Position numbers and translations under genes: made by a program
Shown here: positions 629 to 12,641 of the stretch, in pieces
Position numbering within the stretch: the stretch's first letter is position 1
Layout: every line of letters starts with the position of its first letter
IMG/VR virus record: IMGVR_UViG_3300033402_000312
Strand: one strand, 5' to 3'
DNA: 37,624 nucleotides
Source: a virus
The notes under the pieces: generated by a model
The model's database searches: none
What the model saw: the letters and a program-made list of their open reading frames with translations, nothing else
What the model was told of the DNA's origin: nothing

Positions 629-671
629 TACCCAAAAAAGTGAACTTTCAAGTCCATAAGTGAGGTACCTC

Positions 672-1373
672 ATGGACTACACATGCGCTCAATGCGAGCG
701 AACCTTTACTCCGAATCAGCCTCCAACTCACCCAGAAAATCCGATATGCAGCCGTTCATGCGCTGCAAAGTATATGCACAGAACTGGACGAGCTACATAT
801 CTGCCTAAAAAAGTATACGAATGCTTTTGGTGCCACAAAAACTTTAATGGGCATCCATACAACAAAGAACATCCGTTTTGTTCCCACTCCTGTGCGGCTA
901 CCTACAACAATAAAGCCAAAGGGGGGACTCTAAATAAACCTAACAAAGACCCCCATTGTTACCGTGGAGAAAAGACCCTGTGCTGTAAGACATGTAAGGC
1001 ACCTTCTTATGCCCAGTTTTGCTCTCACAAATGCCAGCATGAGTGGTCGCGTCAACAAAAGATAAAACATTGGCTCCAAACAGGAGAAACAGGCTGCAAA
1101 CCCGGTGGTAGCGGCAGCACCATACCCAGATGGCTCAGAGACTACATCAAAGCCGAACAGCAAGGGCTATGTGCCATTTGTCGCCTGCCGTCTGAATGGA
1201 ACGGACAATTTCTTACTCTCATTCTCGATCACATCGACGGTAACTCTTTCATCTCCTCCCGTGATAATCTCCGGTTGGTGTGCCCGAACTGCGATAGCCA
1301 ACTGCCCACCTCCAAAGGTCGCAACCGAGGCAAAGGTCGTCATTGGAGACACGTGCGTTATGCAGCAGGATAA
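672..1373 (+). CDS. HNH homing endonuclease with N-terminal Zn-ribbon repeats
   Basis: Repeated CxxC...FCSxxC modules; C-terminal CAIC...LDHIDGN...NLRLVCPNCDS HNH motif; GAGGT SD before ATG 672; lower GC; antisense inside the tRNA array. Confidence 0.9.
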   Translation: MDYTCAQCERTFTPNQPPTHPENPICSRSCAAKYMHRTGRATYLPKKVYECFWCHKNFNGHPYNKEHPFCSHSCAATYNNKAKGGTLNKPNKDPHCYRGEKTLCCKTCKAPSYAQFCSHKCQHEWSRQQKIKHWLQTGETGCKPGGSGSTIPRWLRDYIKAEQQGLCAICRLPSEWNGQFLTLILDHIDGNSFISSRDNLRLVCPNCDSQLPTSKGRNRGKGRHWRHVRYAAG

Positions 1374-1720: not shown

Positions 1721-1757
1721 AAAACAAAAAGAGCCGACCTCTTCCGGGGTCGGCTCT
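1721..1757 (-). terminator. intrinsic terminator (attenuator) directly upstream of the tRNA array
   Basis: AGAGCCGACC-ccggaaga-GGTCGGCTCT followed by TTTTGTTTT. Confidence 0.9.
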
Positions 1758-1825
1758 CGCTAGCGTCCTGAAATTGCTGGGCTTGCTTAGTCTTCGAAGC
1801 CCTCAGACACGCCAACGGACCGACC
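1748..1825 (-). promoter_or_regulatory. antiterminator hairpin, mutually exclusive with the terminator
   Basis: GGTCGG-TC pairs with GAGCCGACC (terminator 5' arm). The helix continues with CGTTGGCGT/ACGCTAGCG, TCTGA/TCAGG and GGGCTT/AAGCCC. Confidence 0.8.
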
Positions 1826-1876
1826 GCGTGTAATTCGTTGCGTCGTCGTAGTTCGCGTTGTGGGTGTCTGGTTCAT
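1787..1876 (-). CDS. attenuator leader peptide MNQTPTTRTTTTQRITRGRSVGVSEGFED (29 aa)
   Basis: 8 Thr, 2 Gln and 1 Ile codon in the first 16 codons; its 3' half forms the antiterminator. Confidence 0.8.
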   Translation of the reverse strand: MNQTPTTRTTTTQRITRGRSVGVSEGFED

Positions 1877-1885
1877 GATCTTTTT

Positions 1886-1920
1886 TGGCTGGGGGCCTCC
1901 GGTTTCCCGAAAAGCCCCCA
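1886..1920 (-). ncRNA. tRNA-Gln-like minihelix (35 nt)
   Basis: TGGGGGC-[TTTTCGG-GAAA-CCGGAG]-GCCCCCA-G-CCA; U1-A72, G2-C71, G3-C70, G73. Confidence 0.75.
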
Positions 1921-1922
1921 AC

Positions 1923-1956
1923 TGGAGCCGGGACTCGGATTTCGCCGAACCCCGGC
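1923..1956 (-). ncRNA. tRNA-Thr-like minihelix (34 nt)
   Basis: GCCGGGG-TTCGG-CGAAAT-CCGAG-TCCCGGC-T-CCA; 7+5 bp; G1-C72, C2-G71, U73. Confidence 0.75.
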
Positions 1957-1959
1957 GTA

Positions 1960-1993
1960 TGGCGGGCAGACACGGATTTCGCCGTACCTGCCC
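1960..1993 (-). ncRNA. tRNA minihelix (34 nt), Ile- or Arg-like acceptor
   Basis: GGGCAGG-TACGG-CGAAAT-CCGTG-TCTGCCC-G-CCA; 7+5 bp. Confidence 0.72.
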
Positions 1994-2004
1994 ACTCATC
2001 TACA

Positions 2005-2033
2005 ATACTACTGAAAGTCCAGAAACTTGTCAA
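2005..2033 (-). promoter_or_regulatory. sigma70-type promoter of the minihelix/leader/tRNA operon
   Basis: TTGACA-17 nt-TAGTAT; predicted +1 near 1998, about 5 nt before the first minihelix. Confidence 0.75.
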
Positions 2034-2052: not shown

Positions 2053-2265
2053 TCAGGCGACTGCGGCTACGACCACGACGTTTTCGGCCTGGAGACCCTT
2101 CGGGCCCTTCACGACGTCAAACTTGACGGACTGCCCCTCGTCGAGGGACTTGTATCCGTCAGCCTGGATAGCCGAGAAATGCACGAAGACGTCCTCGCCG
2201 GACTGGCGGGTGATGAATCCGTAGCCCTTTGCTGCGTTGAACCACTTTACGGTGCCTTGTTCCAT
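2053..2265 (-). CDS. cspA: cold-shock protein (CspA family, 70 aa)
   Basis: [18 protein letters not shown] (RNP1) and DVFVHFSAI (RNP2); AAAGGA SD before ATG 2265. Confidence 0.95.
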
Positions 2266-2399: not shown

Positions 2400-3089
2400 T
2401 CAGTTCCACTTGATCTGATCTTCGTCTTTTCGAGCCGGGGCTGGACGGCTCGGCCCTACCGCTGGAGCCTCCGAGAAGATCAGTTCGGGGTCGTCGTTCT
2501 CGCTCAGTATTTTGTCAACGCCGCTCGTGACCGCGTCGAACAGGGGGTCTTGGCCCGGCTCCGGGGGGTTGAAGGGGTCGCCCTCATCGGTTTCCGCGAA
2601 CATCGCCCCGCCCGCGACCACCGAGTCTATCTCGTCGGTGATGCCGAACCCCGACCTGAGGTCGTCCTCAAGGTCGGACAAGGCCTCGGAAAGCTCGCTG
2701 CGCGTGATCGCGATCCTGTTCGACGCCTCCACGATGGGCTTGAGTTGCGCCTGGATGTCGGCGGACAGGGCATCAAACTTGGCGTTCGTCGCCACCCTGA
2801 AGCGGCTGACGATGTCGCGGATGACCAGGATCATCTCGGTCTTCCTGCTGGCTTCGGTGGCACGCGACTTGCGCGTCTTCTCGTCGTTGCACACGGGGCA
2901 GGTCGTGAACATCTCGTCGGCGGGACTTTGGTTGGCTTGGTTGGCTTGATAAGCCTCTTCCACGCCCTCTACCAAGGCAGGCGGTAATGTCCCAACCTTC
3001 TCCGGGCTGATGGAGGTGGCGTATTTCGCCCGCGCCCGCTTGTTGGCGGTGTTGTTCTTGAACTTGATTTTCTTGCTGCTTTTGCCCAT
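2400..3089 (-). CDS. hypothetical protein (229 aa; basic N-terminus, CxxC, coiled coil, acidic tail)
   Basis: GAGGTG SD before ATG 3089 (MGKSSKK). The longer track ORF overlaps the AlaRS-like gene. Confidence 0.75.
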   Translation of the reverse strand: MGKSSKKIKFKNNTANKRARAKYATSISPEKVGTLPPALVEGVEEAYQANQANQSPADEMFTTCPVCNDEKTRKSRATEASRKTEMILVIRDIVSRFRVATNAKFDALSADIQAQLKPIVEASNRIAITRSELSEALSDLEDDLRSGFGITDEIDSVVAGGAMFAETDEGDPFNPPEPGQDPLFDAVTSGVDKILSENDDPELIFSEAPAVGPSRPAPARKDEDQIKWN

Positions 3090-3115: not shown

Positions 3116-3970
3116 TCACGATTTCAATAAAACCAGTTCTTCGGGCAAAAGACCGAAAGTGTCCCACCAGAACTCGGGAGGCTTGTCGCCGTTGCGCCGG
3201 AAATGCCTGCGTCCATTGCGGATGGACTGCTCCATGCGCTTGCGCTCCTCCCCCACCCAGACCGAGAACGGGCACTCGAATTCCTGCGGGTTCAAACGCA
3301 TGAACCGGCGAAGAAGGCGGCGGCAGACGTAGCTCCGCCCCTTGTTGCCCGGCTCAACGCCCCGCTCCCTGAACACGCACAGCGTGCGGAAATGGTCGCG
3401 GGACACCGGGTCGAGGTCTTGGCGGAACAGGCTGGTCTCGTCCACGCGGCCCTTGCCCTCCATGGTCTGGAGCATGCGTTCGTAGCCGAAGCCCACGTCC
3501 ACGGAGTGCCCCATCGGGTTGACGAGGTTGCCGACCTCCAGGCCGCCCGGCGTGAAAAACTCGGAGCACCAGCCGCCCACGGTGCCGTCCGACCACACAC
3601 AGTCCGGGTCGCGGCGCACCGGGAATTCCCTCTCCCAATAGCGCTCGAAGCCCGACTCCGGGTGGACGCTGACGTGCGAGACCGGGATGCCGAGGTCGCA
3701 GATGATGTCCGTCCACATATCGCAATGGCGCTGGTAGTCGTTGGTGCCGAAGCCGAAGCTGCCGACCATCTGGAAGAAGGTCAAATGCGTGCCGTCGCCG
3801 ACCTCGCCGATGTCGTTCGTGCGGACGCAGTACTGGATGTTGCCGTGGCTGGTGCCGTCCGGCGTCTGGAATCTTGGCTTGAGTGGCTGCATCCCCGCGC
3901 TGATGAAGAGGGTCGTTGGATCGTTCTCGGGGATTATGTTGGTGCTTAGTTCAAAGGGGAGACCCGTCAT
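3116..3970 (-). CDS. alaS: truncated alanyl-tRNA synthetase (catalytic and partial tRNA-recognition domains; no editing or C-Ala domains)
   Basis: AlaRS motifs DPTTLFISAGMQ, QYCVRTNDI..VGDGTHLTFFQMVGSF, VDVGFGYERM, DHFRT...GVEPGNKGRSYVCRRLLRR; only 284 aa. Confidence 0.88.
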   Translation of the reverse strand: MTGLPFELSTNIIPENDPTTLFISAGMQPLKPRFQTPDGTSHGNIQYCVRTNDIGEVGDGTHLTFFQMVGSFGFGTNDYQRHCDMWTDIICDLGIPVSHVSVHPESGFERYWEREFPVRRDPDCVWSDGTVGGWCSEFFTPGGLEVGNLVNPMGHSVDVGFGYERMLQTMEGKGRVDETSLFRQDLDPVSRDHFRTLCVFRERGVEPGNKGRSYVCRRLLRRFMRLNPQEFECPFSVWVGEERKRMEQSIRNGRRHFRRNGDKPPEFWWDTFGLLPEELVLLKS

Positions 3971-4457: not shown

Positions 4458-4531
4458 TGGCACCCCCGATGGGATTTTTACCCATACACACGACTTTAGA
4501 GGTCGCTGCTCTTCCGTTGAGCTACGGGGGT
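4458..4531 (-). tRNA. amber suppressor tRNA(CUA) #1, Trp/Gln-like body
   Basis: ACCCCCG/CGGGGGT acceptor (A1-U72), G73, CCA; GCGAC-CTCTAAA-GTCGT; T-loop TAAAAAT. Confidence 0.88.
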
Positions 4532-4558
4532 AAACTTGTTCTTAAAAATACTAAAGAT

Positions 4559-4635
4559 TGGAGCGCCCGGTGGGGATCGAACCCACGCAGCACAAGGCTT
4601 TAGGGGCCCCGGCTCTGCCGCTGAGCTACGGGCGC
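4559..4635 (-). tRNA. amber suppressor tRNA(CUA) #2, C33
   Basis: GCGCCCG/CGGGCGC acceptor, U73, CCA; GGGGC-CCCTAAA-GCCTT; T-loop TTCGATC; TATACT -10-like box just upstream. Confidence 0.85.
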
Positions 4636-7001: not shown

Positions 7002-7175
7002 CTATAAGCCTCTGAGCAGGCATTTGAAAGTCAAGTTTGTCGGCGGACTTAGCCCTTTCTCTGGTGGTCTGGGAATTCGTCTTGGCCCAAAATAGGGCCT
7101 AAGATAGAGATCGTAGAACACAAGCAACATCGTCGCAAGTGCCATACCCGCCAGAAACCACCCTAGAGCACTCAT
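7002..7175 (-). CDS. small single-pass membrane protein (57 aa)
   Basis: Hydrophobic MSALGWFLAGMALATMLLVFY; ends in TAG. Confidence 0.6.
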   Translation of the reverse strand: MSALGWFLAGMALATMLLVFYDLYLRPYFGPRRIPRPPEKGLSPPTNLTFKCLLRGL

Positions 7176-7199
7176 GCAGTTCCCCCGCAACACAGTCGC

Positions 7200-7228
7200 A
7201 TTGTCCCATAAACCAAGGGTCTTGTCAA
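7200..7228 (-). promoter_or_regulatory. sigma70-type promoter for the operon containing both amber-gated genes
   Basis: TTGACA-17 nt-GACAAT with extended -10 TG. Confidence 0.55.
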
Positions 7229-7461
7229 GTCCGTTTTCTCGGACGCGGCGACCGCTTCTTCGGGAACAGCACCCGTATCTTCACGTCCATCGGCGTCTCC
7301 CGAACAAGCGGCACCTCGACCGCGAAGTAGCCGTCGAGCGCCGTCAATGCCGAGACCCTTTCCTTCCCGATGCGGACGGAAATCTCCTCGCAGGACACCG
7401 CCGCCCCGTTGTTGTCAACCATGAAGCCGCTGATAACGAATTTCATCCGTGCTGTTGGCAT
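7225..7461 (-). CDS. hypothetical protein (78 aa)
   Basis: AAGGAG SD before ATG 7461 (MPTARMKF); beta-rich pattern. Confidence 0.65.
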   Translation of the reverse strand: MPTARMKFVISGFMVDNNGAAVSCEEISVRIGKERVSALTALDGYFAVEVPLVRETPMDVKIRVLFPKKRSPRPRKRT

Positions 7462-8343: not shown

Positions 8344-8361
8344 GCCCTATGATACTGCCAG

Positions 8362-8388
8362 AAACAAAAAACCCCGCCGACGCGGGGT
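8362..8388 (-). terminator. intrinsic terminator of the tmRNA gene
   Basis: ACCCCGC-GTCG-GCGGGGT followed by TTTTTGTTT. Confidence 0.88.
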
Positions 8389-8651
8389 CTTTTGCGGTGT
8401 TGAGGATCAGTCCCACCAAGGACTGTGCGTGCAGCTTTTTAGGCCGCAGCCGCAAATGCCATCTCACGAGGAGCGGCAGTTATAGTTTCCATCCTGATTA
8501 ACGAGGGCATGGTGCCTCGGGTCGCTGGCTCCGTCCTCGCATGTCCGCCGTCGAAACCAGTTCACCCCCGAAGTGGTGGAGGTGGGGGGAGTTGGACCCC
8601 CGTCCGAGCAGACTGTCTGGTGCCTTTTGCCCTCGCGGGCTTACGACCATC
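8389..8651 (-). ncRNA. ssrA: circularly permuted (two-piece) tmRNA
   Basis: Acceptor piece first (...GGACGGGGGTCCAACTCCCCCCACCTCCACCA, ending 8574), a 4-nt spacer CTTC, then the coding piece from 8569 (GGGGGTGAACTGGTTTCGACGG). G3:U70 and A73 present. ATAACT-GCC resume context; tag AAPREMAFAAAA* at 8439-8477. Confidence 0.92.
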
Positions 8652-8657
8652 CTACAC

Positions 8658-8687
8658 ATAATACCACGGAAGTCGGTTATCTGTCAA
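8658..8687 (-). promoter_or_regulatory. sigma70-type promoter of tmRNA
   Basis: TTGACA-18 nt-TATTAT with extended -10 TG. Confidence 0.75.
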
Positions 8688-9926: not shown

Positions 9927-10118
9927 ATGGCTCACTCACGAAACAAAAACCCAGCGGGTTGGAAAAAGAACGTGTCCGATGGTGCGGTTAAGAGTGCAGA
10001 GAATAGGATTTGCCCAAAATGCCGGAAAAAATCAGCATTGAAACGCTATTTTGATTTTCAGGTCGCGTTCATTTGGTGTCGATTCTGCGACTACGAGAGA
10101 AGGGAGTTAAAGGTATAG
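9927..10118 (+). CDS. small Zn-ribbon protein (63 aa)
   Basis: GGAGG SD; CPKC...CRFC; ends in TAG. Confidence 0.7.
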   Translation: MAHSRNKNPAGWKKNVSDGAVKSAENRICPKCRKKSALKRYFDFQVAFIWCRFCDYERRELKV

Positions 10119-10121
10119 ATT

Positions 10122-10358
10122 TTAGTTGGGGTCCTTGAACAGGGGGCGCTCAAGCATCCCCTTGTCGGTCTTCTCTTCGAGGAGGTCAGCGTATTGGCGG
10201 AGCAAAGCAGCAAGCTCGTGTCCCTCTTCCGTGACGTTGCCTATGGCAACCAGCGACGGGGGGTCGGAACCCACCATCATGCCCGCGTAGGCGAACCCGT
10301 GCTTCGTGGCGAGCGTTGTGAAAATCGTGTAGGCTTGCAGGAGGTCGTCGGGCAGCAT
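10122..10358 (-). CDS. hypothetical protein (78 aa)
   Basis: Track ORF with genome-like codon usage. Confidence 0.7.
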   Translation of the reverse strand: MLPDDLLQAYTIFTTLATKHGFAYAGMMVGSDPPSLVAIGNVTEEGHELAALLRQYADLLEEKTDKGMLERPLFKDPN

Positions 10359-10374
10359 ACAGCCTAATACCGCG

Positions 10375-10926
10375 TCAGCAAGCCTGCGGGGGAATCTTCG
10401 GCGGAGTTCCGCCTGAGCCAGAATTGTTATCTGAGGGTTGGAATCCGAGGGTTTTGGGGCTGTCCCTGATCACGTCAGGCCAGTTCTTGAAAAGCGGGAA
10501 CGTAAGATAGTAGTTCCCCGCGAACTCGATCCAGTACCCGCGCAGCGGGTCGAAGCCCGCATCGAGCATGGTCACGTTGCCCGTGGCGACGGGCGGCACC
10601 GGGGGCGGGATCGGGAGACCGGGGTACTTGTTGTACAGCGCGGGCGTAGCCGCGTAGGGCGGGCGGTCAAGCTGCGCCGCAGGGATGGAAGCGCCGAACC
10701 ACGGCTTGAGGAAAAGCCGGAACCCGTCTTGCCGCGTGTATTGGCCTATGTCGTACCAGATCATGTAAAGCGAGTCGCCGAACAGGACGGTGGTCTGCAC
10801 CTTCGCCCAAATTGTGCGGACGGACAGCATGGCGCGGAGTCCCGAATCCCACGGGATGCCGGACACCGGGAGCACTTCCTGGGGCTGCGGCTTGCTGAGT
10901 TGAAGGGCGAAAATTGTCTCTCCCAT
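10375..10926 (-). CDS. hypothetical protein (183 aa), possibly virion-associated
   Basis: GAGGA SD region; Pro/aromatic-rich, low-charge composition like the structural genes. Confidence 0.8.
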   Translation of the reverse strand: MGETIFALQLSKPQPQEVLPVSGIPWDSGLRAMLSVRTIWAKVQTTVLFGDSLYMIWYDIGQYTRQDGFRLFLKPWFGASIPAAQLDRPPYAATPALYNKYPGLPIPPPVPPVATGNVTMLDAGFDPLRGYWIEFAGNYYLTFPLFKNWPDVIRDSPKTLGFQPSDNNSGSGGTPPKIPPQAC

Positions 10927-10927
10927 G

Positions 10928-11650
10928 TTACATGTTCCTCCTGTTCCGCATCAATTCGACTGCGGCTTTTATTTTTTCGGGGTTGTTCGCCGCCCATGCT
11001 TTGGCTTTTTTGCGGAGTTTTTGGCGTGTCTCCTCAGAACACTCCCTACCCCAAAGGGAAAAAGCTACCTTTTTGGCTATTTCAGGGTTTTGCATGTGGT
11101 GACGCCCCTCAGCAGCTAATTGTTTTAAGCTATCTGATTGTTTCTGTTTTGATTCTACTGAACGCTTATGCCCTATGTGGGCTACTTTGGATGCCGCAAA
11201 TGCGGCATCAGATGGACGCTTACCCTTACGCATAGCACTAAATTTTTCTTGCATCTTTGGGTCTTGCATAGGATTTAATCCAAGGGCAGACCTACGCAAA
11301 TGTGCTTCACTCATCTTCTTTCGGGTTTCAGGATGGACGTTTTTGGCCCTTCCACCAGACTCCAAATTATAGCCTACGCTTGGATCGGTGGCTTTAAGCT
11401 GCTTAATAAACATCTTTTCCCAGTAGTTGGCTTGATCTCTTGAAGATGCTCGTATCAAAACAGATGTTTTGAACGCTTTAGGGCTATACTTGCGGATGGC
11501 AGCGTGAAAATGCGGGCATTTTCCCTGCTTCAAATTGAATGCAGCAGAACAATGAAGTCTCCAGCGATGCTTCAAAGTGAGACTCGTTTGCCCTATATAA
11601 TATTTGTTGTTAACTGTATTTACTACTATATAAATGAGGGTTTCGCCCAT
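10928..11650 (-). CDS. GIY-YIG homing endonuclease (Seg-like, NUMOD3 repeats; 240 aa)
   Basis: LIYIVVNTVNNKYYIGQT, GYNL, HPETRKKMSEAH; AT-rich; ATG overlaps the upstream TGA. Confidence 0.9.
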   Translation of the reverse strand: MGETLIYIVVNTVNNKYYIGQTSLTLKHRWRLHCSAAFNLKQGKCPHFHAAIRKYSPKAFKTSVLIRASSRDQANYWEKMFIKQLKATDPSVGYNLESGGRAKNVHPETRKKMSEAHLRRSALGLNPMQDPKMQEKFSAMRKGKRPSDAAFAASKVAHIGHKRSVESKQKQSDSLKQLAAEGRHHMQNPEIAKKVAFSLWGRECSEETRQKLRKKAKAWAANNPEKIKAAVELMRNRRNM

Positions 11651-11895
11651 CAGCCCAGCCGCTTCATGGGGCATCCGAATTTGTGCGGAAAGGGGGTTTC
11701 GTGAATGTTGGCCACCCTGCCGCACTTGCCGCACTTGAACGCAAAGTCGCCGTCCTCGCCGTCCACCACCTCGTAGGCGAAGCCCATCAGGGCATCTTGG
11801 TTGCCGCGCTTGATTTCGGCGATCTCCTCCGGGGTGAATTCGTCGTCGAGACCATCCTCGTACTGCTCGTCAAAATCATCGAAATCGATAGCCAT
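11650..11895 (-). CDS. small acidic Zn-binding protein (81 aa)
   Basis: GAGGTG SD before MAIDFDD; CGKC...H...C. Confidence 0.75.
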   Translation of the reverse strand: MAIDFDDFDEQYEDGLDDEFTPEEIAEIKRGNQDALMGFAYEVVDGEDGDFAFKCGKCGRVANIHETPFPHKFGCPMKRLG

Positions 11896-11984
11896 AGGAC
11901 ACCTCATCAAAAAGAAACTCGTAGCGGAGGCGGACCTTTCATCTTCTTGATGTCACTCATAATTGTCATATTAGAGTCTCCAGG

Positions 11985-12641
11985 TCAGAATGACAAAATC
12001 CAAGAAAAAATTATGTCAACTCCGGCAGGAAGTATCAGCGGAGGCAGCGTCTTGTAGTTCACGAGTACCACCGAATCCGCCGGGCCGGGAGGCGTCGCGG
12101 CGGGGTTGAAGTACGGCGCGGTCACCATGTTCGTCGGCTGCCCGCCAGCGCCCGCCAGCGTGCCGCCGCCGATGAGTCCCATCTCCCGGATGCTCTGGGT
12201 GATGTTGTCGGTGGTGGCGTTGACCGTGGTCTGGAAGTCCACCATTGTGCTGAACTGGTTCACCGGATTGAAGTTGGCATCGACGTAGTTGATGCGCGAA
12301 AGGGGCTTGCGCAGGAACTCGGAGATGAGCGCGGTCTGGATCGGGGAAGGGTCGGGCTGCGTCTCCGGTGCCCAGCTAGGCGAGCCAGCGCCGATTGCCA
12401 AGCCCCATATGCCGTACAGCGGGTCTGCCGACACGCCTGCCTCGCCGAGGGTGTAGGGGACAGCCGGGGCGTTCGGGAGGGCGTTCGCGCAAAGCCTCGC
12501 GAACAGCCAGCGGACGACGTTGGTGATTATATTTTTCTGTTGAAACAAAACCTCTCCGGTGTCAGACCGAAATATTCGGAGATACCCTGTGTCAATAGGC
12601 AATGTCTGCGTGTAAAATCCATCCCTAAAGTTAAGTTGCAT
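11985..12641 (-). CDS. putative baseplate/tail-fibre attachment protein (218 aa)
   Basis: NIITN...LAIGAG...QTALISE.RKP...IREMGLIGG...NYKT pattern resembles myovirus tail-collar/baseplate proteins; position at the end of the baseplate cluster. Confidence 0.65.
   Translation of the reverse strand: MQLNFRDGFYTQTLPIDTGYLRIFRSDTGEVLFQQKNIITNVVRWLFARLCANALPNAPAVPYTLGEAGVSADPLYGIWGLAIGAGSPSWAPETQPDPSPIQTALISEFLRKPLSRINYVDANFNPVNQFSTMVDFQTTVNATTDNITQSIREMGLIGGGTLAGAGGQPTNMVTAPYFNPAATPPGPADSVVLVNYKTLPPLILPAGVDIIFSWILSF

Follow-up and report, generated by a model that had tools for sequence, protein, structure and literature searches.

Minihelices, which join the acceptor stem of a tRNA to its T arm, are familiar constructs in the laboratory, and tRNA has been proposed to descend from them. 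Synthetic versions of about 35 nt, with a coaxial helix of 7+5 bp, a discriminator and CCA, are substrates of alanyl-tRNA synthetase (AlaRS), RNase P, the CCA-adding enzyme and the toxin FaRel2. Anticodon-less tRNA-like RNAs also occur naturally; mascRNA/menRNA, plant mitochondrial t-elements, T4 species 1 RNA and the tRNA-like domain of tmRNA have an acceptor/T-arm geometry suited to RNase P and take no part in decoding. Phages are also known to make RNA decoys, and the pseudo-ToxI repeats of phage phiTE and RNA anti-CRISPRs are short, tandem, non-coding units of variable copy number that mimic the host RNA ligand of a defence protein. Multivalent leader-peptide attenuators such as thrL and ilvL combine a leader rich in the sensed codons with alternative 1:2, 2:3 and 3:4 pairings and an intrinsic terminator. 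Finally, the tRNAs of phage T5 are cited as countering PARIS and retrons (in 10.1101/2024.07.05.602228), and in known cases of this kind full-length variants are swapped in for tRNAs that have been cleaved.

We examined a tRNA operon in a 37,624-nt stretch of viral DNA (IMG/VR record IMGVR_UViG_3300033402_000312, hereafter the window), in which the operon lies on the minus strand. An earlier note on this DNA had described three tandem hairpins of 34-35 nt, 2-3 nt apart, each with a 7-bp acceptor stem, an extension of about 5 bp, a discriminator and CCA and with no D or anticodon arm. Our analysis recovered these hairpins at the same coordinates and with matching folds. Reading 5' to 3' on the minus strand, minihelix 1 (1960-1993, 34 nt) is separated by 3 nt from minihelix 2 (1923-1956, 34 nt), which is followed after 2 nt by minihelix 3 (1886-1920, 35 nt). 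The 7+5-bp folds of units 1 and 2 are closed by an identical 6-nt loop, the shared loop that the note had pointed out, and unit 3 forms 13 bp with one bulge or, alternatively, 7+6 bp. Each unit is a single helix of 12-13 bp with a 4-6-nt loop, an unpaired discriminator (G, U and G in units 1 to 3) and CCA, and has a predicted folding energy of -20 to -23 kcal/mol. A strict scan of the window returned exactly these three units (1886-1993) against 0.03 per window expected by chance, as estimated from 30 Markov-1 simulations of the window. A covariance model scored them at 35-47 bits and the rest of the window at 12 bits or less, with units 1 and 2 belonging to the model's own training set. As the note had anticipated for tRNA scanners, ARAGORN and Rfam searches of the window did not report the minihelices, and no Rfam family matched them. 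The absence of a U-run, the G-U-rich stems and the invariant CCA ruled out a terminator or a DNA cruciform.

Compared with the tRNA family (RF00005), the units have the 7-bp acceptor stem, the discriminator and CCA, whereas the D and anticodon arms are absent and a single hairpin of 34-35 nt is all that remains. The 7-nt T loop with its UUCRA consensus is likewise missing, the loops being 5-6 nt long and purine-rich, although the G-C closing pair is kept; this pair, at position 53-61, occurs in 20 of 22 copies, as in synthetic minihelices. The 12-bp coaxial helix and single-stranded NCCA of an acceptor/T-arm minihelix are both present. Unlike the synthetic constructs, however, the phage units are natural, genome-encoded, tandem and under covarying selection, their 6-nt loop lacks the T-loop U54-U55, and their G-U-rich inner stem is common to different identity classes. 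Nor do they resemble mascRNA or t-elements, in which a cloverleaf-like remnant at a transcript end is needed for processing: the units have no D-arm remnant, are located at the 5' end, and are absent from four loci with an intact leader. The natural anticodon-less RNAs are of one fixed identity each and retain part of the D arm, a genuine T-loop or a body of 58 nt or more, whereas the phage units are bare helices of 34-35 nt in three classes. The units are a variant of tRNA-like mimics that falls outside the tRNA, mascRNA-type and AlaRS-substrate classes and is structurally a minihelix. Searches of a largely non-subscription literature for minihelices acting as phage decoys, for tRNA mimicry against defences and for phage tRNA arrays under attenuation returned nothing relevant, and in the literature searched we found no earlier description of a natural, conserved, stand-alone 34-nt minihelix family.

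The minihelices lie directly between a promoter and a leader peptide. A sigma-70-type promoter (2005-2033, minus strand; -35 at 2033-2028, -10 at 2010-2005; 10/12 match) ends 11 nt upstream of unit 1 and would place +1 near 1997-1999, and a -35/-10 pair with identical spacing is present in nearly all homologous loci. The leader ORF (1787-1876, minus strand) starts with an ATG at 1876, 9 nt beyond the last CCA, and has 29 codons; Thr, Gln and Ile make up 11 of its first 16 residues. It is kept in about 20 distinct loci, and in all in-frame copies these three amino acids fill 10-12 of the first 16 positions, with all four Thr codons and both Gln codons in use. In one related locus (L004, 3044-3120) the leader is frameshifted by a single additional base and leaves the Thr-rich frame, through error or decay. 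The 3' half of the leader can pair either with its own 5' half or with the 5' arm of an intrinsic terminator with a U-run (1721-1758, minus strand). In a constrained fold of the window, the latter pairing forms an antiterminator (1748-1828, minus strand) when the Thr, Gln and Ile codons are covered. Across 21 loci the antiterminator duplex averaged -20.7 kcal/mol for cognate partners, against -16.9 for swapped partners and -12.0 for shuffled sequences. A leader ORF rich in sensed codons thus overlaps two alternative pairings, one for the antiterminator and one for the terminator. Ribosome-mediated attenuators are built in this way, and the present one is predicted to sense charged Ile-, Thr- and Gln-tRNA. 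It resembles thrL and ilvL in these respects, but it gates phage tRNA genes and its 5' leader bears a panel of minihelices. The note's placement of the units after the predicted +1 and upstream of the attenuator held in the window and in its homologs. Since they would be on the terminated transcript as well, the minihelices are probably made constitutively. Assembled contigs from two soil RNA runs gave one short contig each from a relative, covering the leader ORF (1787-1886 and 1806-1881) and none of the minihelices; such contigs cannot show ends or transcription.

Downstream of the attenuator (all on the minus strand) are tRNA-Ile(GAU) (1632-1706), which ARAGORN misses, three tRNA-Thr genes (1377-1623; CGU 1548-1623, GGU 1467-1541, UGU 1377-1459) and three tRNA-Gln genes (354-589; UUG 516-589, UUG 434-510, CUG 354-429). 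The tRNA-Thr(UGU) has a long variable arm, as it does in several relatives, and several of the array tRNAs have non-standard T loops or C33. An HNH-like ORF with CxxC repeats (660-1373, plus strand) is an antisense insertion between the Thr and Gln blocks, for which a Pfam search gave no match. In three related loci (L001 11598-11751, L002 11686-11816, L003 11510-11625) the Ile block contains a tRNA-like RNA that is not found in the window; it has an Ala-type acceptor (G3:U70, A73, CCA) and a T arm and lacks a normal anticodon arm. A conserved and probably structured stretch of about 170 nt is also present in the Ile block of four loci (L002 ~11824-11995, L003 ~11631-11808, L004 ~3360-3550, L011 ~7095-7285), and an Rfam search with this stretch from three loci gave no match.

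We recruited homologs through an AlaRS-like protein encoded upstream and a leader DNA pattern, which yielded about 20 distinct related loci. Wherever the DNA extends far enough, the leader is followed by the terminator and then by an array of solely Ile, Thr and Gln tRNAs, with Ile at the start and Gln at the end. Between promoter and leader there are 0-3 minihelices per phage, which amount to 27 distinct sequences, 23 of them 34 nt long with 12 bp and 4 of them 35 nt. The 22 34-mers that were compared align without gaps at a mean identity of 60%, down to 35%, with a CCA whose invariance stems partly from the search criterion. Nevertheless, 95.5% of the 264 cells are paired, compensatory changes occur at 11 of the 12 pairs, and the covariation score is 0.82, whereas shuffled alignments reach 0.29 and slid partners no more than 0.22. 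G-U pairs account for about a third of the inner stem, and therefore it is a strand-specific RNA structure that is kept, which fits a function at the RNA level. The earlier note had proposed such a pattern search with covariation analysis near tRNA arrays and had held that a lack of conserved stem length or NCCA would speak against its proposal; both are conserved in the homologs. We therefore have high confidence that the minihelix structures and the family are real. Variants include a middle minihelix with a 2-nt deletion (L029, 344-375) and an insertion of about 110 nt between two minihelices (L016, ~399-508).

As a control, a pattern for the inner scaffold plus CCA found 14 matches in viral contigs with 1-5 of the 7 acceptor pairs; all were chance matches, so the exact scaffold was not found in the other phage groups searched. 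Viral contigs contained no match to DNA patterns taken directly from the window, and a blastn search of annotated phages returned just short chance or tRNA matches. When the covariance model was applied to 69 candidates in each of 101 Terriglobia genomes, no convincing copy emerged, only two weak matches (one in a coding region, the other a terminator-like hairpin), and in five phage records it found no further copy elsewhere.

The note had named recent random deletions of tRNA genes among the outcomes that would count against it, and related to this is the explanation that the units are neutral relics, tRNA genes that have lost their D and anticodon arms. The unit order, which equals that of the tRNA blocks, is consistent with relics, as are the copy number of 0 to 3 and the decaying L029 copy. 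However, the inner stems are 59% identical across classes and only 34-43% identical to the cognate T-stems. In the inner 16 nt, identity between classes (62%) nearly equals that within classes (64%), whereas the acceptor ends are 36% identical between and 65% within classes. The inner parts are thus alike across classes and unlike T-stems, which argues for one scaffold that was duplicated and given different ends, not for three tRNA deletions, and recent deletions are excluded by the same data. Furthermore, the 6-nt loops lack a T-loop consensus, and length is fixed and pairing kept although identity drops to 35%. The covariation largely refutes the neutral reading, which we regard as extremely improbable.

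Four distinct loci retain the leader and terminator and have no minihelix at all, and the minihelices are therefore accessory. This bears on an alternative in which the units act as processing or stability signals, namely handles by which RNase P, with RNase Z or E, would cleave the leader at its 5' end or shield that end and so tune read-through or leader translation, the freed RNAs being by-products. RNase P prefers a pyrimidine at position -1, and this position is a pyrimidine in 25 of 26 copies. The 12-bp helix, the loop and the RCCA end also fit model RNase P substrates, the leader ATG, which lacks a clear Shine-Dalgarno sequence, usually follows the last CCA at a distance of 9-16 nt, and in three minihelix-free loci the leader begins almost at +1. 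On the other hand, one generic unit would be enough for processing, which leaves two or three tandem copies and class-specific ends in tRNA-block order unexplained. RNase P cleaves on the 5' side, so the last hairpin would stay on the mRNA, and attenuation demands that a ribosome load within seconds of transcription. RNase P-like processing is needed if the units are decoys as well, yet it has no need of class-specific ends. The note's suggestion that processing exposes the leader ATG was weakened by the four loci, in which the same leader and terminator remain intact, and the reading that leader translation requires the minihelices was rejected. Overall, a role limited to processing seems unlikely.

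The order of the classes is invariant, with an A73 class in the first slot followed by a Thr class and a Gln class, and it equals both the order of the tRNA blocks and the amino acids of the leader; the note's observation on the window thus extends to its homologs. We compared the last three pairs and the discriminator of each unit with the full tRNA set of an Acidobacteriaceae genome. Within this set, 3 of 4 Thr-class copies matched only Thr, the remaining Thr-slot copy resembling tRNA-Leu, and 8 of 9 Gln-class copies matched only Gln. The end of unit 2 (G1-C72, C2-G71, C3-G70, G4-C69, U73) matched solely tRNA-Thr(CGU) and that of unit 3 (U1-A72, G2-C71, G3-C70, G73) solely tRNA-Gln(UUG), which bears out the likenesses that the note had proposed for these units. 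Its suggestion of Ile for unit 1 is weaker. First-slot copies have G1-C72 in 14/14 and A73 in 13/14, and their ends mostly fall in the Ile/Val/Met group, with some Tyr-, Ala- or Ser-like. Unit 1 (G1-C72, G2-C71, G3-C70, C4-G69) is the outlier with G73, and together with this discriminator the last three pairs fit host Arg/Asp and not Ile, which makes an Ile label weak for this unit. The leader-region tree places the Thr class in one supported clade and the Gln class in two, with the A73 class widespread; class counts therefore overstate independent events, and the Thr class may have arisen once.

Because the end classes equal the amino acids sensed by the leader, the units might also be synthetase sponges or tuners that bind where IleRS, ThrRS and the Gln-charging system (GlnRS or GatCAB) take up tRNA acceptor ends, lower host charging, and thereby sensitise the attenuator or favour the phage tRNAs. 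The acceptor identity elements are in place (C2-G71 and U73 for Thr, U1-A72 and G73 for Gln, G69 and A73 for Ile). However, all three enzymes depend heavily on the anticodon, and minihelices should therefore bind weakly. Inhibition would moreover harm the phage, whose tRNAs use the same enzymes, and the avoidance of G1-C72 by phage tRNA-Ile (see below) would be left unexplained. We consider this role improbable.

The window belongs to a large phage with baseplate and homing endonuclease genes, and the related phages of this soil family are represented by contigs of 170-460 kb (jumbo phages). It also encodes a permuted (two-piece) tmRNA with an Ala-rich tag that is kept in relatives (8348-8667, minus strand) and two amber (CUA) tRNAs (4458-4635, minus strand). 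Relatives have two to four of the latter, and long ORFs nonetheless read fine in table 11. In the amber-tRNA cluster of two relatives (L006 4050-4085, L013 3924-3959) there is a separate 35-nt minihelix with a different scaffold and an acceptor like that of host tRNA-Ala(UGC) but with G3-C70, and in that of another (L048, ~10118-10170 and ~10567-10616, minus strand) two CCA-ended acceptor stems surround short hairpins, as armless tRNA-like units. Directly upstream of the operon promoter is a cold-shock protein gene (2053-2265, minus strand) whose product is 75-87% identical to its closest relatives, proteins mostly from Terriglobia, and the host is therefore probably a member of the Acidobacteriota, as judged from this single protein. 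A 229-aa ORF between the AlaRS-like and cold-shock genes (2400-3089, minus strand) has counterparts of 42-55% identity in some relatives and is missing from others.

About 20 Terriglobia genomes supplied host tRNA-Ile, -Thr and -Gln for comparison with the minihelices and the phage tRNAs. The difference is most pronounced for Ile: G1-C72 is present in 15/15 host tRNA-Ile and 14/14 first-slot minihelices but in only 1/38 phage tRNA-Ile, which have A-U, G-U, C-G or U-A as the first pair instead. In the window the non-host end consists of C1-G72, C2-G71 and C3-G70, with C4-G69 and A73 kept, as they are in 38/38 phage tRNA-Ile. Many phage tRNA-Ile have the exact host anticodon loop, so the difference is at the acceptor end and points to pressure there. 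For Thr, G4-C69 is found in 26/31 host tRNAs, 16/39 phage tRNAs and 3/4 minihelices, and the host-majority Gln end in 15/21, 13/34 and 8/9, respectively. The note had contrasted a canonical bacterial Gln end on the minihelix with UGCC or UGCG ends on the phage tRNA-Gln genes; the minihelix is indeed host-like, but the contrast is weaker than claimed, as host tRNA-Gln(CUG) also has a UGCC end and 13/34 phage tRNA-Gln have the host-majority end. The minihelices thus resemble the host substrate more than the phage's own functional tRNAs do, strongly at Ile pair 1 and moderately at Thr pair 4 and the Gln end, in counts that are not independent. Host-like minihelices together with host-unlike phage tRNAs form the pattern that would be expected if a host factor reads acceptor ends, is drawn to the minihelices and is evaded by the spare tRNAs.

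This pattern leads us to propose that the minihelices may be constitutive, uncharged decoys for toxins that act on tRNA acceptor ends, backed by escape tRNAs made on demand, a proposal that we hold to be evenly balanced. The units, on a shared 12-bp scaffold carrying host acceptor ends of the three tRNA classes that the operon would protect, would be transcribed whenever the promoter fires, being upstream of the attenuator, and RNase P and 3' trimming would free RNAs of 34-35 nt ending in CCA. Having no anticodon, these would stay mostly uncharged and outside decoding, and could soak up putative host toxins whose recognition of uncharged tRNA rests on its acceptor stem and CCA, such as toxSAS pyrophosphokinases, MenT-type nucleotidyltransferases or acceptor-stem tRNases. 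Should charged Ile-, Thr- or Gln-tRNA still run short, a ribosome would stall in the leader and the terminator would be bypassed, and read-through would then supply spare phage tRNAs with acceptor stems unlike the host's. The more specific claim, that natural free-standing minihelices form an identity-matched decoy panel absorbing tRNA-end toxins while the attenuator, by sensing codons, holds back the escape tRNAs unless the decoys fail, is put forward tentatively, at slightly less than an even chance.

Two precedents speak to the feasibility of decoys, and to that only. The toxSAS FaRel2 picks tRNA-Gly and tRNA-Thr via acceptor pairs 1, 2, 4 and 5 and efficiently modifies a synthetic minihelix (10.1101/2024.07.05.602228), and its determinants are present in 24/31 host tRNA-Thr, 14/39 phage tRNA-Thr and 3/4 Thr minihelices. 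The CDI (BECR) tRNases cleave the acceptor end of tRNA-Gln and cut uncharged tRNA-Ile(GAU) behind nucleotide 71 or 72, although according to the same review CDI toxins may additionally read the anticodon (PMC9086364). These CDI toxins, however, work between bacteria and not against phages. As with the T5 tRNAs, the Ile-Thr-Gln array looks like a set of escape tRNAs, here tied to the same three amino acids, but anticodon-less decoys with an attenuator-gated replacement would differ from the known exchange of full-length variants. Compared with pseudo-ToxI repeats and RNA anti-CRISPRs, the ligand mimicked in this putative decoy role would be a tRNA acceptor arm. The note's toxin-decoy idea gains indirect backing, chiefly through the difference between host and phage tRNA-Ile and not through the Gln contrast on which the note had drawn. 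Several observations weigh against decoys. The class counts lack phylogenetic independence (one clade for Thr, two for Gln), and the first slot is ambiguous: the last three pairs there fit Ile, Val and Met alike, and the copy in the window carries G73. The anticodon and T loops of the phage tRNAs vary too, which would fit anticodon nucleases that no minihelix could decoy, and the A1-U72 of phage tRNA-Ile could have been inherited from another host group rather than selected. In addition, the operon runs without minihelices in four loci, and the host was deduced from a single protein.

A compact AlaRS-like gene (3116-3970, minus strand), 1-2 kb upstream, suggests a different partner: its product might charge the minihelices, or be titrated by them, so as to provide non-ribosomal aminoacyl donors or an RNA antitoxin. 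The protein (about 257-284 aa) keeps the class II and tRNA-recognition motifs, lacks editing and C-Ala domains, and has 185 relatives, several on large phage contigs. Its residues are conserved (Asn in 98/107, Asp/Glu in 96/101) at positions that we take, from AlaRS motifs, to read G3:U70, and the predicted fold (pTM 0.47) is too low in quality to map them. The gene is upstream in 12/12 minihelix loci whose DNA extends far enough, no match to it occurs in a complete phage that has the operon and lacks minihelices, and first-slot ends carry G1-C72, G2-C71 and A73, with G3-U70 in one copy. Truncated AlaRS enzymes do charge minihelices, weakly without G3:U70 in one study (PMC11392972) and strictly with it in another (PMC10036535). 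However, G3-U70 occurs in 1/26 copies and in none in the window, so the G3:U70 and A73 of an AlaRS substrate do not characterise the units, while the enzyme family retains its G3:U70-reading positions. The Thr and Gln classes have U73 and G73, respectively, and the enzyme also occurs without such units and, in L012, next to tRNA-Ala genes. Moreover, a G3:U70 substrate is readily available in the phage tmRNA, the co-occurrence can be put down to synteny and kinship, and the phage without an enzyme match still has the non-host, escape-type tRNA-Ile end. A partnership is therefore disfavoured and, in our judgement, highly improbable, and the gene is best regarded as syntenic context; possibly its product charges the phage tmRNA or tRNA-Ala.

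As the minihelices are invisible to tRNA scanners, more of them may be hidden in phage genomes, and a length of 34 nt makes in vitro tests against known toxins cheap. As decoys, if that is their role, they would constitute an RNA-only counter-defence against tRNA-end toxins, and since sensor, decoy and replacement share three tRNA classes, these classes would predict the specificity of a putative Acidobacteriota defence. The same premise would bear on the question of why phages carry tRNAs, in that sensor, decoy and replacement would all be directed at the same three classes.
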